From: a virus | Taxonomy: Duplodnaviria > Heunggongvirae > Uroviricota > Caudoviricetes | Virus record (IMG/VR): IMGVR_UViG_2925903241_000005 | Location: 1 to 46,437 of that record | Direction: 5' to 3' (one strand) | Length of the DNA: 46,437 bases | Shown here: positions 1 through 25,749 of the stretch, in pieces | Layout of the letters: every line of letters begins with the position of its first letter | Position numbering within the stretch: position 1 is the first letter of the stretch | The notes under the pieces: model-generated | Told to the model about the DNA's origin: nothing | Seen by the model: the letters and a program-made list of their open reading frames with translations, nothing else | The model's database searches: none | Program-made: the position numbers and the translations under genes

Positions 1-207
1 ATGCCAAACGGCGCTGTGGACGCGTTAAAGGAAGAATTAACTCGACGCATCAGTAAGCGTTATGACGATGTAGAGGTGATCGTAAAAGCCACCAGCAACG
101 ATGGCCTTTCTGTTACACGCACTGCCGATAAAGATTCAGCTAAAACTTTTGTTCAGGAGACTCTGAAAGATACCTGGGAATCTGCTGACGAGTGGTTTGT
201 TCACTAA
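1..207 (+). CDS. dinI: DinI-family protein, C-terminal part (5' end outside window)
   Basis: Translation ends ...[16 protein letters not shown], matching the conserved C-terminus of DinI-like SOS proteins; ORF runs off the window start. Confidence 0.6.
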
Positions 208-275
208 TTAACACGTAAAATCGGTAACGGCTTGAAATCATTAAATACTCGCCCTATCGAAAGCTCACCAGCCAG

Positions 276-309
276 CCGCAACACGTTCTTACATATGACG
301 TGTCTGCGG
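276..309. repeat. imperfect palindromic element, copy 1 (CCGCAACACGT-N11-ACGTGTCTGCGG)
   Basis: Inverted repeat read directly; a second copy with about 31 of 37 matching positions is at 2743..2776. Confidence 0.5.
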
Positions 310-323
310 TTTCAACTCCACCA

Positions 324-357
324 GCCCACCAATCATGATTGGGCTTTTTCGTTTTTC
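324..357 (+). terminator. putative rho-independent terminator downstream of dinI-like gene
   Basis: GC-containing hairpin (gcccaccaatcat/gattgggc) followed by a T-run (ctttttcgttttt). Confidence 0.4.
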
Positions 358-486
358 TTCACCTGCAAGCAAACCGTTGTATCATGGCGGAATGAAGATG
401 AGCTAGGAATAATCTTATGAATCAGCTCAATATTCATATAAAAACATTTCGAACTTTGGTGTACAAAACTACATAGGGATAACTTT

Positions 487-1689
487 ATGTCTCTTCGTTT
501 CAGACAAACCTTTACTTTATTTCCTGGCGTTCGACTCAACATTGGCAAGCGTGGAATAAGTGCAAGCATTGGCATGCCTGGCGCAACTGTCAATGTTGGT
601 AAAAAAGGGGTTAGAGCAACTGTCGGATTACCGGGCACAGGCTTATCTTATACTACACCTACCTTGCCCTATGATGATGGATACTCAGTTACCAATCCAT
701 TAAATCCAGCCCCTACAGAACCTCATTTGGGGTCTGGGTCATCTCCAGAAAACACACCATCGAACGCTAAAATATATATGCCTGTAGCTGGCATGAATGA
801 AATATCCAGCGCTTCGGTAGAAGTCCTTACAAGTACCTCCCTTTTACCTTTACGAGATTTGATTGCTAAAGCACGAGAACAAAGAGCAGAGATAAAAGCA
901 GATCTTCAAGAGGCTCTTGCCGAAGAATCAAAACAAAAAAGCGAGCTGGCTCGACGCAAATCAAGTCTATTCCGTTGGTTTTACAAACGACGCATCGCAG
1001 AACTTGAGACACTACTCCCCCTAACCCAAGCTGAGATATCTCGCCTAGTTTCATGGGAAGACAGCACAAAAATAGCCATAACATTCGAGAGCAGTGATGC
1101 TTCACAGCGCGCATATGCAGCGATGGTCCATGCATTTGATATGTTAAAATCGAGTGTCAAAAAATGGGATATTACTGCAGATAAAGCTACAGACCAGTTT
1201 GCTGAAAGAACATTAGCAACCCGGTCTGTTAATCGTCACCCAGTTACCTTTGATTTTAGTTCAACGGATCTCATTCAATTTACAGGGCGTGCGATGAGGT
1301 TTGAAAATGCAAATGGAGACGATATTTTGCTTTATCCTGGAGTTGCAGTCATACCACGAGCCGATGGAGCATTCGCTCTGATTGATTTACGCGAATTACA
1401 AATTAGTTCAGAATATCTAAGATTCCATGAGGAAGAAGGTGTTCCCAGTGACTCACGCATAGATGGTTATACATGGGCGAAAACGAATAAGAATGGCTCA
1501 CCAGACCGTCGTTTTAAAGACAACTACCAAATCCCTATTTGCATTTATGGAAATATTACTTTCCATTCTCAAACAGGGGTAACTGAAGAATATATGGTAT
1601 CAAATGCAGATGCCGCGCACGCCTTTGCTGAGGCAGTAAAACGCTATCAGATTTCACTCACAGAAACAGAAGCGTTGGTACAAGCCTAA
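487..1689 (+). CDS. DUF4236-domain protein (N-terminal NIGKRGIS-type motif) with uncharacterised C-terminal domain
   Basis: 400-aa ORF; N-terminus FPGVRLNIGKRGISASIGMPG...VGLPGTGLSY resembles the DUF4236 signature from memory; sits outside the tail-fibre end of the prophage. Confidence 0.45.
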   Translation: MSLRFRQTFTLFPGVRLNIGKRGISASIGMPGATVNVGKKGVRATVGLPGTGLSYTTPTLPYDDGYSVTNPLNPAPTEPHLGSGSSPENTPSNAKIYMPVAGMNEISSASVEVLTSTSLLPLRDLIAKAREQRAEIKADLQEALAEESKQKSELARRKSSLFRWFYKRRIAELETLLPLTQAEISRLVSWEDSTKIAITFESSDASQRAYAAMVHAFDMLKSSVKKWDITADKATDQFAERTLATRSVNRHPVTFDFSSTDLIQFTGRAMRFENANGDDILLYPGVAVIPRADGAFALIDLRELQISSEYLRFHEEEGVPSDSRIDGYTWAKTNKNGSPDRRFKDNYQIPICIYGNITFHSQTGVTEEYMVSNADAAHAFAEAVKRYQISLTETEALVQA

Positions 1690-1885
1690 TTTATCGCCGA
1701 TATGGGGACGAATCGTAGGTTAAAACCCCTCGAACAAAAAAACCTTAAGAACCAGACTATTATGGCTGGTTCTTATACGGAGGATTTGTTATTGTACAAC
1801 TCTTCTATCTGGTATATTTACGGATAGAACTGTTCGGGCTACTCAATCCTTTTTAAGTACAAATGAACAGATAGAAATAGTTATA

Positions 1886-2688
1886 TTGCAAGGAGCTATC
1901 ATGCACACTGAGTATATATGGCGATATCTTGACATAGAGAAATTCTCTATGTTACTCGAACAAAATGCTTTATTTTTTTGCTCAGCAAAAAATTTTGAAG
2001 ATCCGTTCGAAGGTGAATTTGCTTGGGGACATACTGGCTATAAAAAATTCATTGAGACACAGGAAAAACTATGCGCTACTCATGGTGCCGGCATGGACTT
2101 AGAGCCTTTCATGGCATTCAATTTAAAGACACCTAAGGAAATAAGCGAGAGGACATATATAAGTTGCTGGCATTGTAACGAACATGAATCTGAAGCTATG
2201 TGGAAGCTGTATTGTAAAAACCCCGCTAAAGGCGTTGTCATAAAATCAAAGAAAAAAACCTCCAAAGCCAACTTGAAAATAATAATCTAAACAAACTACA
2301 ATTAAAACACGTAAAATACGTCAAAAATTTCTGGATAAAACAATACAATCCAGAATCAGATGTATTCTTTAACAAGAGACCATCTTTCGAACACGAAAAA
2401 GAGTTTAGAGCTATTTTTCAAGAGAATACCTTTAACACTCCACCTGTAAAGGGAAAACTAGTCCCTGTATCTCTTAATAATCTGTTGGAAGAAATAAGGA
2501 TTTCACCTTTCGCAGATAAGGATTTCAAAAATGAAGTTTTACAAATTTCAAAAAAATATGGACTAGATCTAAAAGTCAAAAACTCTGAAATTGAAATGCA
2601 TCCCATCATGCATGTTGAGGAAGAAATAATTGCAGAAGGCCCCAATTGGTATCAGTCAAAAATCAGGTTGGCAATACGTGATGCTTAA
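1886..2688 (+). pseudogene. DUF2971-family gene interrupted by a frameshift in an A7 tract (near 2252..2258)
   Basis: Frame of 1886..2290 carries DUF2971-like motifs (FFCSAKNFEDPFEGEF; CWHCNEHESEAMWKLYCKNPAKGVV). Reading frame -1 is open from about 2230 to 2688 and continues a sensible protein (..LQSQLENNNLNKLQLKHVKYVKNFWIKQYNPE..). The two frames meet at 'aaagaaaaaaacc'. Confidence 0.55.
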
Positions 2689-2742
2689 TCTTATATTGAA
2701 GTTTTTTATGTCTCCTGCTGAAACTAGCTAAAATTTACCAAG

Positions 2743-2776
2743 CCGCAGCACGTTATTGCATACAACGTGTATGCGG
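2743..2776. repeat. imperfect palindromic element, copy 2 (CCGCAGCACGT-N11-ACGTGTATGCGG)
   Basis: Same element as 276..309; lies just downstream of the tail-fibre stop and may also act as its terminator hairpin. Confidence 0.5.
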
Positions 2777-2974
2777 CGTATCTCAAAACGATTACTCCAT
2801 AACAGGGACAGCAGGCCACTCAATATCCGGTGCTACTGATGTATCAACACGGTTCAGCAACACCCGATACTTCTTCCAGGCTTCCAGCAACAAGGTTTCT
2901 TCCTCCGTTGCGATTTCCAGCTCAACAACAGTCTGAACGTACCGGGAACAGCCTCCTTCAGAGCTTGAAGGATA

Positions 2975-5900
2975 TCAATGTTCGCTTCCTGTTAACTGCC
3001 GGACAAGTGCAACCAGTTCGCTTACCTGATTTTCCAGAGTGCTGATCCGGGTGCCTGCTGTTGCCAGATTTTGACGTAGCGTTGTGTTTTCCTCTTCCAG
3101 CGCGGTAACGCGATCATCTGTTTCACGGGCGACCTGAACAAGTAAACCCGTCACGGCGGCGTAGTCAACATTAAGATAGCGCGTTTCTTCGCGTAGCTTG
3201 TTGCCGTCAACGGTCGGACCTTGCAACTCTTCACCATAATGAGTAAACGATCCCACAGCTTCTGGTATCGCCTCCATTACTTCCTGTGCAATAACGCCAG
3301 CATAAGGCAGGCCGTTTTCCTTGAGCGTGTAGGTGTAACCGTTCATTTTGCGGATTGCTTTCGTCGCGTCGCTGATAACGCGAATATCGTCTTTAAGGTC
3401 GCGGTCTGATGACTGATTCAGCGTTGTGCAATTAATAGCGCCATTTACATCAAACAACTGGCCTGCTGGTGTTCTTTGCGCATAAAACAGATACGCAGCA
3501 GACGTTGCAACCTCAAAAACGTTTTGTCGATCACTTGACCCCCAGACCGCGATGCTAACTGGCAGTTCTGAATTACCTGAATTAAGTAAAGCAAAACGAT
3601 TGCCAGTCCCTGTTTGTTTTCTAATTACTAAATCGGCAGTTGAGTTAACCTCATCTTTGTTGATGGTTAGCGCCTGCGCTGTAGCACCGTTAACAGTGCC
3701 ACTTAGTAGTTGAACCGCTCCATCATCGCCATTTAACAGCACTTGAGCGCTGCTTCTGTGGTTTTTCAGGAACAACTTTTTGCCTGTGCTTTCTGATGTG
3801 CCTACCGACCACGCCGAATTGGTTCCAGTGCTATCAACACCACGAACGGTACAATTCATGCTGCCATAATCTGACGTACTTCCAAGCACATCAATCCGCC
3901 CGCCACCTAATTTTGATGGAGTCGTCGAGGTTAACGACCTGACGGTTACATCCTGATTCCATCCTGAAACAACTACCTGACTCCACTCCGTCCAGTTTCC
4001 ATTGACAACAAAGCGAACGTATATGCGTTTTGTGTCGCTGCCAATCAGCGTTTGCATGATCGCATAATCTGAACCCGTAGTTTTACGAGTAGATTCTACA
4101 CGTAGCAAAAAGTTACCGCTTACGCCGTCAGGCTTATTGGTAATATATGCACCACCTGCAACAGTTTTGCATTGATAGTATTTAACAGATCCAGCCACTG
4201 TATTAGCAATGATCAAGTCGTTTAAATCAATAGTCTTGTTGTCAATGGTTTCCGGCTCGATAGATCCCGCCATACCTGCGTTAAATGTGGCAAAGTCAGA
4301 AAAGGTTGTTTTACCGCCTACCGTCACCCCGCTATCGAGTTTTGCTTGTGTGATTACTTTGCTGTTTTTTGTGTGGTCAGAATAACTACCAAAATACAAA
4401 TCACCGTCACCAGCTATACCCAGGTATTTTTGATCAACATCATCAACCTTAAACCCAATGGACAAGTTTTTAATTGTGTTGTTGCTCGTTAAAACCAAAG
4501 GCGTATGCTGAGATCCTTTGATGCTTACCGTAGTGTTATCGGAACTGGTGCTTGTGTTTGCAAATTCTGCGGTGGCTGCGCTGATTTTGTAAGTTATTTT
4601 TAGATTGCGGGCCTCAACCCTCCCGTCGTGGCGAACAATAAAATCACCACTTGATTCACCTTTTGTGTTTTTCGCCCTGATGTGGATTTCGCCAAGTGAT
4701 TCGTTGTTTTCAGGCGACCAAACAACGCCGCGCTCGCTTCCGTCGTTGTTCATGAACCACAGATGAGCGGTTCCTTTTGCTGATTTTAGCCTGATAGATG
4801 GCGTTTCTTTCAATATATCAAGATCACCAGACATAACATCGCCGGATTTTTTCACCTGCGCATCGTTAGTTACGTTGCCAAGTCCAACATCCGATTTCGA
4901 CGGCTTGTTTGCCGAGCCGTATAGCTCATTGATGCTAAAAGTCCCGTTGTTAAGCCGGGCATCGTTGCCGGCATAGATCTTAATCTTCGCGGTTGAGTAG
5001 TCGATATTGATCGCTGACCACGTATCGCCGCACCGCGAGAATATACCAGAACCGTGGCTATAAATGGTCGCCGTGCTTCCGGTCGGCTTATCACCGCGCC
5101 AGAAATGACCACCTTTGTCACGCAGAGCTTTTAAGATCTCTACATCGCTCATCTTGCCGTTTGTTGATATCCCGCTACCGCCAAGACCGAAAGCGCCTGT
5201 AAGCATAGCATTAGAAAGACCCAAATCTGCTTTAGTCGGCTTGTTTAACTGGTCGTAAATCCTTACAACGGGGCTTTCAACATATCCAGAAGGCGCGGCG
5301 GTTTGCTTAACAAATCCGTCTGGAATGTATAATTCCGGGCGTGCCGTCTGCGCCAGCACCGCAACCTTTGCGCCGTTGATAAATGCGCGCTGGAAGGCCC
5401 AAACCTCAATAAAGCCGTCACCTTTAACCAGGCCGTAACGCATCTGGTTGTTATCGGTCAGCCCGGTTGACCCTAAGCGGCGTATACTCAGATGACGAGA
5501 AACATTATCCGCACTAAGCAAAGAAGGCAGACCGCGCGCCGAGATCTCGATAAAGTCAATGTTTCCGTAAGGGGAGCCGTAGTTACCGGCATTAGTAACC
5601 ATTAGCGTTACATGGCAATTGCCGCTTCCGGGATCGGAAAGTTTCGCGATCTTTATGTAAAAAGACTCATTACCAGTAACAACGGGCCAATCGTATTGCG
5701 TCATCGGGCTGACGAGTCCCCCGACCTTGTCGAGATATTCTTTCGCCTTGTTCTCTGACGCTTTAGCGTTGGTTTCGCTGACCTTTGCTGCTGCCTCACT
5801 ATTTTTCGCGTTGGTTTCTGATTTTTTGGCTGCTGTCGCGGAGTTTGCCGATGCAGTTTGTGAGTCTGCTGCCGCCTGTGCGCTGTTATCCGCATTCGTC

Positions 5901-6739
5901 TCAGACGTTTTTGCGGCCTTCGCGGAATTTCCTGCTGCCGTTGCCGAGGAAGCTGCACTGCCGGCGCTCGAGGCAGCGCTCGTTTCTGATGATTTTGCCG
6001 CCACTTTTGAAGCCGACGCATCCCGGGCTGAGGTGGCAGCTTCTGACGCTTTCGTGGTCGCGGTGGATGCAGATGTGGCCGCAGATTTTTGTGATGCTGC
6101 GGCATTCATTTCCGACGTTTTCGCTGCACCGGCACTGGTGGCTGCCGCGCTTTTTGAAGACTCTGCGGCGGCAGCACTTTTTGATGCTTCAGTGGCCTTT
6201 GTTGATGCCGTTCCTGCGCTGGAAGACGCTGACTGAGCCGACGACGCGGCCTGTCCGGCTGACGTGCTGGCTGCACGTGCTGAGCCTGCAGCATCAGTCG
6301 CACGGGTTGCCGCCTCACGGGCTGATGTGCTGGCATCGCTGGCTGACTTCTTCGCGGCTGCCGTGTTCTGTGCCACCGCGGACGCGTTACGCGCCACCTC
6401 TTCCACCATCAGTTCAAAACGGCGCAGTGCCTCAGGACGGGCATCATCCTCCGTCATGGCACCGAGAAAATCATTCAGCGTACCGGGTCGGGAATCTTCA
6501 TACACGGTGATGGTCCCGGCATGTGACGGCGGGAATCCTTCCACCAACAGAATAACGCTGTACTGACCGTACTCAACGTCCATGCTGTAACGCCCGGCTT
6601 CATCCGGATTTTCTGAGGCCAGCGTGTTCACCACCACCGTGGTACTGTTACGTTTTGCTTTCAGCTGGATTGTGCAGTTCTGTACCGGTTTTCCTGTGCC
6701 GTCTTTCAGTACACCTGAAATCTTTACTGCCATATTCAC
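2975..6739 (-). CDS. stf: side tail fibre protein: lambda Stf-like N-terminus, long Ala/Ser/Thr-rich repeat region, C-terminal S74 intramolecular-chaperone domain
   Basis: N-terminus MAVKISGVLKDGTGKPVQNCTIQLKA... matches lambda Stf; C-terminus ...DGNKLREETRYLNVDYAAVTGLLVQVARE..TALEEENTTLRQ resembles the endosialidase-chaperone domain; 1254 aa versus about 774 aa for lambda Stf. Confidence 0.85.
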   Translation of the reverse strand: MNMAVKISGVLKDGTGKPVQNCTIQLKAKRNSTTVVVNTLASENPDEAGRYSMDVEYGQYSVILLVEGFPPSHAGTITVYEDSRPGTLNDFLGAMTEDDARPEALRRFELMVEEVARNASAVAQNTAAAKKSASDASTSAREAATRATDAAGSARAASTSAGQAASSAQSASSSAGTASTKATEASKSAAAAESSKSAAATSAGAAKTSEMNAAASQKSAATSASTATTKASEAATSARDASASKVAAKSSETSAASSAGSAASSATAAGNSAKAAKTSETNADNSAQAAADSQTASANSATAAKKSETNAKNSEAAAKVSETNAKASENKAKEYLDKVGGLVSPMTQYDWPVVTGNESFYIKIAKLSDPGSGNCHVTLMVTNAGNYGSPYGNIDFIEISARGLPSLLSADNVSRHLSIRRLGSTGLTDNNQMRYGLVKGDGFIEVWAFQRAFINGAKVAVLAQTARPELYIPDGFVKQTAAPSGYVESPVVRIYDQLNKPTKADLGLSNAMLTGAFGLGGSGISTNGKMSDVEILKALRDKGGHFWRGDKPTGSTATIYSHGSGIFSRCGDTWSAINIDYSTAKIKIYAGNDARLNNGTFSINELYGSANKPSKSDVGLGNVTNDAQVKKSGDVMSGDLDILKETPSIRLKSAKGTAHLWFMNNDGSERGVVWSPENNESLGEIHIRAKNTKGESSGDFIVRHDGRVEARNLKITYKISAATAEFANTSTSSDNTTVSIKGSQHTPLVLTSNNTIKNLSIGFKVDDVDQKYLGIAGDGDLYFGSYSDHTKNSKVITQAKLDSGVTVGGKTTFSDFATFNAGMAGSIEPETIDNKTIDLNDLIIANTVAGSVKYYQCKTVAGGAYITNKPDGVSGNFLLRVESTRKTTGSDYAIMQTLIGSDTKRIYVRFVVNGNWTEWSQVVVSGWNQDVTVRSLTSTTPSKLGGGRIDVLGSTSDYGSMNCTVRGVDSTGTNSAWSVGTSESTGKKLFLKNHRSSAQVLLNGDDGAVQLLSGTVNGATAQALTINKDEVNSTADLVIRKQTGTGNRFALLNSGNSELPVSIAVWGSSDRQNVFEVATSAAYLFYAQRTPAGQLFDVNGAINCTTLNQSSDRDLKDDIRVISDATKAIRKMNGYTYTLKENGLPYAGVIAQEVMEAIPEAVGSFTHYGEELQGPTVDGNKLREETRYLNVDYAAVTGLLVQVARETDDRVTALEEENTTLRQNLATAGTRISTLENQVSELVALVRQLTGSEH

Positions 6740-22048: not shown

Positions 22049-25749
<3,701 letters not shown>

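Follow-up and report, generated by a model that had tools for sequence, protein, structure and literature searches.

A moron is a supplementary gene unit, equipped with a promoter and a terminator of its own, that lies between conserved phage genes (the Juhala/Hendrix concept, cited in PMC4104026). In experiments by De Paepe et al. 2014 (PMC3945230), phage lambda gained DNA from the Rac and Qin prophages via stf/tfa homology, at a frequency of about 2e-6, with Red-beta as the main route for short or diverged homologies. Here we describe an element that relates to both, a hairpin present twice in a stretch of 46,437 nucleotides (nt) from a virus of the Caudoviricetes (IMG/VR record IMGVR_UViG_2925903241_000005, positions 1 to 46,437; hereafter the window), on either side of two cargo genes that encode DUF4236 and DUF2971 proteins. 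The window, which matches E. coli AR216.2b (NZ_CP043942) at 100% identity, spans a complete lambda-like prophage inserted at a tRNA-Pro gene, between yejM and yejO. A first-pass annotation had noted the two palindromes and, in view of their shared sequence, suggested a common protein-binding or recombination site delimiting a cassette. We propose instead that they are diverged copies of a terminator hairpin module situated at the seam between accessory and tail-fibre genes and reused as a homology patch, an explanation that we consider probable though well short of certain.

Copy 1 (CCGCAACACGTTCTTACATATGACGTGTCTGCGG, positions 276-309) and copy 2 (CCGCAGCACGTTATTGCATACAACGTGTATGCGG, 2743-2776) are direct repeats, 2467 base pairs (bp) apart from start to start and identical at 28 of 34 positions. 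They were the only matches to the 34-mer in the window when both strands were searched with up to three mismatches, and none was found in 100 dinucleotide-preserving shuffles, no match being expected by chance. The same-orientation pair of the first-pass annotation is thus confirmed, as is the statement that it brackets the DUF4236 and DUF2971 genes (487-1689 and 1901-2688). Each copy is a stable GC-rich stem-loop on the transcribed strand downstream of a gene, 68 nt past the stop codon of dinI for copy 1 and 54 nt past that of the DUF2971 gene for copy 2. Their stems comprise 11-12 bp with one bulge (-14.6 and -14.2 kcal/mol, respectively) and stand out from those of shuffled sequences (z = -4.2 for copy 1 and -3.6 for copy 2). 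As their loops are longer than 8 nt, neither hairpin was picked up by a simple terminator scan. The repeat is longer than 34 bp, as about 20 nt located 5' of copy 2 are homologous to the sequence 5' of copy 1; alignment and folding place this second repeat unit, which comprises a homologue of the 3' part of the module described below and the hairpin, at 2723-2776 on the plus strand. On the opposite strand, a remnant of a tail-fibre-assembly (tfa) gene has its stop codon 15 nt from copy 2, and the flank of this copy is near-identical to the one found in lambda where hairpin and tfa adjoin.

A non-coding module of about 100 nt begins at about 215 and has copy 1 as its 3' end; this module, GTAAAATCGGTAACGGCTGGAAATCATTCAATACTCGCACTATCGAAAGTTCACCAGCCAA followed by the hairpin, is the conserved unit. 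In the window it extends from GTAAAATC to CCAGCCAG and through the hairpin (215-312, plus strand), as delimited by alignments and by genome and phage searches. The module acts as the 3'-untranslated region and terminator of dinI, and alignments show it behind at least five other upstream contexts (at least six in all). A 115-nt query (208-322) matched 5358 of 5426 complete E. coli genomes, at two places per genome in the median and nine at most, almost always within prophages apart from one fossil locus. A 100-nt consensus matched 215 phage records, including lambda, phi80, HK629, mEp460 and many Shiga toxin (Stx) phages, and a few Salmonella phages gave weak matches to the hairpin alone. The first-pass annotation had regarded many dispersed copies at gene ends as the mark of a generic element, and as a family-wide element, found in nearly all these genomes, in nearly all lambda-like prophages of E. 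coli and in lambda itself, the hairpin does have such a distribution.

In an exact-pattern scan with one genome per species, the module was found only in Escherichia and Shigella, besides three contigs from assemblies of a Caldithrix metagenome-assembled genome, a Chryseobacterium and a Lysobacter (L135, L143 and L144; L numbers denote compared loci). The copies in these contigs, two of which are only 262 and 401 bp long, are exact and most likely represent contamination of the assemblies by E. coli or phage DNA. Searches of the window and three loci against Rfam 15, at gathering and permissive thresholds, returned no family over the hairpin or the module; the only matches were a sub-threshold one to IS009 in the area of the tfa remnant (2835-3035) and weak ones to CssrB (E = 0.1-0.6). 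No account of the element was found in the literature searched. As far as Rfam and this literature show, it is undescribed, though of known kinds (a moron boundary, an intrinsic-terminator hairpin, a homology linker).

The first-pass annotation had called for a comparison of relatives with and without the intervening genes, and this proved informative: those devoid of cargo have a single hairpin at the same place. In phage mEp460, dinI is followed by one hairpin, by TTTTTCTTTTT, which contains a uridine tract (U-tract), and then directly by the tail-fibre end. Likewise, in three other loci (L114, L017 and L021) the module and its hairpin are joined to the type of tfa end present in the window. 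A synthetic one-hairpin junction built from the window was contiguous, at a coverage of at least 80%, in 800 of the 5426 genomes, and the filled DUF4236/DUF2971 arrangement was present in 121. As with morons, the block is therefore present or absent between the same conserved neighbours. The filled cassette was also found in a prophage backbone that lacks dinI, in FXCREC004, where it adjoins an icd fragment, and in L128.

The flanks of the hairpin are mosaic in a combinatorial manner on both sides. Among 124 oriented instances of the hairpin family, taken from 130 fetched loci, there were 7 left and 13 right flank types in 22 combinations, and the dinI-type left flank alone was joined to 12 right flanks. 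Depending on the phage, the right side consists of a tfa end directly, of ynfT-ydfK-pin (as in Qin), of genes for EcoRII endonuclease, Dcm methylase and a GIY-YIG protein, of an effector of the IpaH type with leucine-rich-repeat and NEL domains, of a diguanylate cyclase, of membrane proteins or of the Pin invertase. BLAST matches of relatives to the window stop mostly at 309-317 and restart mostly at 2723-2743, and a second cluster of breaks is found at 2811-2823, within the tfa remnant. With respect to the hairpin, left breakpoints fall at about -62 (the 5' edge of the module), -30, -20 and 0, and right breakpoints at 0, +6, +8-10, +14, +20 and +34. The last of these follows a shared perfect palindrome, CCAATCATGATTGG (329-342 in the window, 20 nt past copy 1), which is common to the left junctions of the EcoRII/Dcm, IpaH-like and L058 cargos, the homology stopping at about 343.

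Bracketing by two hairpins is recurrent. A census by blastn-short detected two copies in 30 of 131 loci, in all cases on the same strand. Besides the DUF4236/DUF2971 pair with its 2467-bp spacing, the bracketed contents were the ybcY methyltransferase with a tfa remnant (1049 bp, in two left contexts), a diguanylate cyclase with ybcY (2700 bp), the EcoRII-Dcm-GIY-YIG group (4164 bp), of which L072 and L101 hold the empty counterpart dinI-hairpin-pin, and the GIY-YIG gene alone (1020 bp). In lambda (L154, NC_001416.1), ea47 (22686-23918) is bracketed on the complement strand by direct hairpins at 24162-24195 and 22582-22615; the upstream one carries the full module of about 100 nt and lies downstream of ea59 and ea31, and the second one is 15 nt from the stop codon of tfa (orf-194). 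The cassettes contain putative promoters and sometimes convergent genes. Across contexts the prophages are integrated at tRNA-Pro, tRNA-Arg (argW)/IntS, icd, lambda attB and ydfJ, and no recombinase was common to the hairpin contexts examined, Pin being present in some only. Such a pattern is more readily reconciled with repeated exchange, homologous or illegitimate, close to a conserved patch than with a crossover at one fixed point. The part of the first-pass annotation that saw in the palindromes the limits of a cassette is thus supported by the single hairpin of cargo-less relatives and by the homology breaks at hairpin edges, with the restriction that the element is not specific to this cassette. 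The part that explained the shared sequence by a protein-binding or recombination site is not: the breakpoints are scattered and neither a dedicated recombinase nor a binding protein is indicated.

That the hairpin is of the terminator type, an option that the first-pass annotation had set aside, is the best-supported reading, based on the U-tract of the empty site, a 3' end mapped in K-12 and compensatory changes in the stem. As in intrinsic terminators, a GC-rich stem-loop past a stop codon is followed by a U-tract in 9 of the 13 right-flank types. The copy in the Qin prophage of K-12 MG1655 (NC_000913.3, 1632532-1632565) continues with TTTTTC, and Term-seq 3' ends of the class 'orphan' have been reported at 1632571(+) and 1632574(+) (Adams et al. 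2021, PMC7815308, supplementary file 1), i.e. 6 and 9 nt past the stem; both are present in two parts of that file. At this left end of Qin (L130, 1632470-1632574) the 3' ends thus fall on the hairpin's U-tract and no upstream gene is annotated on the same strand; therefore, an unannotated transcript of at least about 100 nt ends at the Qin hairpin. The stem is retained in 27 of 29 distinct hairpin variants. At pair 5, three variants have G-C in place of A-U; at pair 7, C-G has become U-A in two variants and A-U in the second hairpin of lambda (HP2). A twelfth pair, which flanks the 34-mer, is A-U in some sequences and G-C in others, with seven double changes. These counts were taken from folds of the individual sequences, MAFFT having mis-registered the right arm of the variants that lack the bulge. 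RNAalifold indicated no conserved structure in the module besides the terminator hairpin. Unlike typical intrinsic terminators, the hairpins of this family have a long loop (9-11 nt), and the U-tract is missing in window copy 2, in both lambda copies and in DLP12.

The two window copies are less clear-cut than the family as a whole, and we infer their activity from that of their homologues. Copy 1 is followed by TTTCAAC, with only three U, and copy 2 by CGTATC. Shortly after copy 1, a second hairpin, AGCCCACCAATCATGATTGGGCT, is followed by TTTTTCGTTTTTC (323-358, plus strand, from the fold) and carries a T5CGT5 tract. Judged by its sequence, it looks like a canonical intrinsic terminator backing up copy 1, and this hairpin with its T-run is probably the real terminator of dinI in the window. 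The palindrome CCAATCATGATTGG forms the core of its stem; it is part of a terminator stem in the window and occurs without a T-run in the other contexts. Copy 2 can be compared with the copy in the DLP12 prophage of K-12, which lies between tfaD and ybcY. No Term-seq 3' end is present at this hairpin, and a Rho-termination region is reported at 582001(-), about 110-145 nt beyond it along the ybcY strand and antisense to tfaD. By analogy, copy 2 is probably not an efficient terminator. More generally, several copies of the hairpin have no U-tract and probably do not terminate transcription on their own. At L004/L131 (K-12 DLP12, 582097-582152) and L006, the K-12 ybcY methyltransferase pseudogene is itself one of the cassettes, located between two tfa 3' ends and ending in the hairpin devoid of a U-tract.

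Taken together, these findings lead us to the following scheme, of which the recombination pathway is what we infer. In lambda-like Escherichia prophages, the hairpin occupies the seam at which the accessory region, on the side of dinI, meets the convergent tail-fibre genes. In relatives without cargo, the dinI transcript would end at a single hairpin with its U-tract; in the window it would end at copy 1, with its weak U-tract, together with the canonical terminator at 323-358, and copy 2 would close the DUF4236/DUF2971 unit, probably only as a stabilizing 3' stem, with termination further on, as its DLP12 homologue suggests. As the hairpin, a leader of about 60 nt and the tfa 3' end recur in conserved form where the surroundings are otherwise unrelated, they may serve as short homology patches, the tfa 3' remnant being, from its conservation in sequence, the second of them. 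Recombination by phage Red and host RecA between co-resident phages or prophages would swap in moron cassettes, each with a hairpin copy of its own at its end. Such a swap would leave the cargo between direct repeats of 34-55 bp, which could later delete it. The simplest history of the window would be a double crossover between a dinI phage and a donor that already possessed a hairpin-cargo-hairpin arrangement: one exchange would fall within the module or its hairpin, the second within a hairpin or at the tfa end. The shared sequence of the two hairpins would accordingly reflect common descent and reuse as a homology patch.

This scheme resembles the described systems in several respects and departs from them in others. 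As in morons, the cargo is present or absent between dinI and tfa, is read apart from the late operon and ends in a terminator-type hairpin, and many unrelated cargos share the slot. Yet here every cassette ends in a homologous hairpin and is thereby bounded by direct repeats, whereas a classical moron needs no shared terminator sequence. The mosaic exchange described by De Paepe et al. 2014 (PMC3945230) likewise concerns the stf/tfa neighbourhood beside ea47 and short diverged patches around non-homologous DNA, with Red-beta-dependent exchange measured in experiments, but the stf/tfa homologies in that work were 650-700 bp long, whereas the hairpin/module patch is only 34-100 bp long.

A number of points weigh against our explanation. 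Neither window copy has a canonical U-tract directly 3' of its stem. With 34 bases (about 55 with the leader), the repeat is short for RecA recombination, and most exchanges may use the longer dinI/module and tfa homologies, with the hairpin carried along at the seam as a passenger. The scheme does not account for the first cassette with two hairpins. No near-identical empty allele of the window's lineage was found in the 5426 genomes, the best matches to the one-hairpin junction being about 88% identical. Finally, most loci were gathered by means of the hairpin search, which biases the breakpoint statistics.

We considered the possibility that the hairpin is a dedicated site-specific recombination site, comparable to an integron attC or a secondary att site, at which a phage or host recombinase would read the folded or duplex palindrome and insert or excise cassettes, creating an integron-like array at the prophage end. 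Direct copies bracket at least six unrelated cargos, with direct orientation in all 30 two-copy loci, many junctions coincide exactly with hairpin edges, most copies have a single bulged base in the right arm, and one hairpin (L040) looks like a chimera of two hairpin types; in addition, the module is labelled 'attP' in the GenBank entry of phage HK633. Yet no cognate recombinase is linked to the hairpin, since integrases and insertion sites differ and Pin is often absent, and the crossover is not fixed, the breaks ranging from -62 to +34 in a biased sample of natural variants that is not definitive. The window copies differ at 6 of 34 positions, and prophages of the HK633 type, with an IntS integrase, are found at tRNA-Arg with int and the module contiguous. 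We therefore regard such a site as improbable. In its more specific form, the bulged hairpin would be an attC-like cassette-capture site, cassettes would be inserted and excised by a phage or host enzyme that acts on the palindrome in its folded form, and lambda ea47 would be one of these cassettes; to this, too, we give very little credence. Integron attC sites do share with the hairpin the form of imperfect palindromes, in direct orientation at cassette 3' ends and often with a bulged base, but the hairpin lacks an IntI-type integrase, R/L core motifs and a fixed crossover. Moreover, the prophage cassettes have putative promoters and can hold several genes in both orientations, some of them convergent, and it is the sequence of the hairpin, not just its structure, that is conserved. 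We know of no sequence similarity of the hairpin to a LexA box, a Pin/gix-type crossover site or Xer/dif. A transposon target-site duplication was also rejected: the copies are only 82% identical and 34-55 bp long, and no transposase is present.

Another explanation, also unlikely, is that the module of about 100 nt is the gene of a small regulatory RNA (sRNA), or a functional RNA derived from a 3'-untranslated region, and that its position at cargo borders is incidental. This would account for the 'orphan' 3' end in Qin, which has no annotated upstream gene on its strand, and for the near-universal presence in E. coli of a module whose 5' edge is sharp and coincides, in at least six upstream contexts, with the -10-like hexamer TAAAAT (216-221). 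On the other hand, no conserved -35 region was seen, the conservation of the module does not exceed that of dinI next to it, and the module has no Rfam match and neither conserved structure nor covariation upstream of the hairpin. Furthermore, the prophage sRNAs described by Tree et al. 2014 lie at the PR' moron site and do not include the module, the supplements of that work contain no mention of dinI or tail fibre, and copy 2 of the window lacks most of the module. As to a generic dispersed palindrome, such as a repetitive extragenic palindromic (REP) sequence or bacterial interspersed mosaic element (BIME), or a chance pair of similar terminators, the hairpin is of comparable size (an imperfect palindrome of about 34 bp), lies at gene 3' ends and has several copies per genome. 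Unlike REP/BIME elements, however, it has about two copies per genome (at most nine) rather than hundreds, is borne by prophages and one fossil locus, shows no REP consensus and no association with REP-associated tyrosine transposases (RAYT), and is restricted to Escherichia and Shigella apart from the three probable contaminants. None would be expected by chance, and the 60-nt leader and the tfa end are conserved along with it. The copy number and the prophage-only context effectively refute this explanation, to which we attach almost no weight.

The 'attP' label of HK633 (JQ086377.1 20680-20760; L155 1501-1581) had been assigned because the module resembles the ykgJ-yagV intergenic region. 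HK633 has an integrase of the IntS type, and a query consisting of int plus the module was contiguous, at a coverage of at least 80%, in 1857 genomes. In E2348/69, a prophage of the HK633 type adjoins tRNA-Arg (argW) with int and the module uninterrupted. The module was thus rejected as attP: IntS-type prophages lie at tRNA-Arg with an intact int-module unit, and the 'bacterial' ykgJ-yagV match is itself a prophage fossil. The label is probably wrong.

The fossil locus lies in the E. coli core genome, in the order ecpE/yagV - ykgJ - yagU (L008 2938-3703), and consists of a 3' fragment of dinI with the module, ykgJ and a tfa remnant. Its hairpin shows compensatory changes, and the tfa remnant corresponds to Rfam IS009 (RF02111, a candidate sRNA) with 190 bits. 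In its gene order and similarities, the ykgJ-yagV (ecpE) region has the look of a fossilized prophage cargo slot of the same kind, and IS009 would seem to be a tfa gene remnant.

The hairpin with its leader of about 100 nt, together with the tfa 3' end, provides sequence anchors that delimit a hotspot of cargo genes, present in almost all E. coli genomes. This slot has been seen to hold EcoRII/Dcm restriction-modification, the candidate defence protein DUF2971 (PDC-S31), an IpaH-type type III effector, a diguanylate cyclase, ybcY and lambda ea47, among others. Searches between the anchors would allow the defence and virulence genes of prophages to be mined at little cost. An 'orphan' RNA 3' end of K-12, a probable attP mislabel and the ykgJ prophage fossil are also accounted for by the element, and it offers a concrete, testable case of short conserved non-coding seams that organize phage mosaicism. 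If the attC-like reading were true, lambda-like prophages would possess an integron-like array of defence and virulence cargo beside their tail-fibre genes.

With regard to the layout of the window, it begins inside the dinI-like gene, whose 3' part (1-207, plus strand) is supported by Pfam DinI (E = 6.9e-20) and by the RefSeq annotation; the NCBI prokaryotic annotation pipeline (PGAP) calls this gene frameshifted, and it adjoins tRNA-Pro at the prophage end. On the far side of the cargo lie, on the minus strand, the tfa 3' remnant (2792-2926; RefSeq annotation and alignment) and the gene of a side tail fibre of 1254 amino acids (2975-6739), which converges on the cargo and with which the late operon ends. 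A sigma-70-like promoter match at 358-385 is based on the consensus only, the number of such matches not exceeding that in shuffled sequences.

The first cargo gene (487-1689, plus strand) encodes a protein of 400 amino acids in which only an N-terminal DUF4236 domain was recognized (Pfam PF14020, E = 7e-21) and for which PADLOC returned no match. The second (1901-2688, plus strand) belongs to DUF2971, the PADLOC candidate defence family PDC-S31. In the window it is a frameshifted pseudogene, as the A-run at 2252-2258 comprises seven A instead of the eight found in relatives; the gene is intact (262 amino acids) in L128, and FXCREC004 has two other 1-nt deletions. These changes reflect either repeated decay or switching at homopolymer runs. 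A second DUF2971/PDC-S31 gene, intact and encoding 318 amino acids, is present at the opposite end of the window (43857-44813, minus strand), just outside the prophage integrase and adjoining a partial second integrase. The two DUF2971 copies of the window are too diverged to be aligned by BLASTP (E = 0.5).

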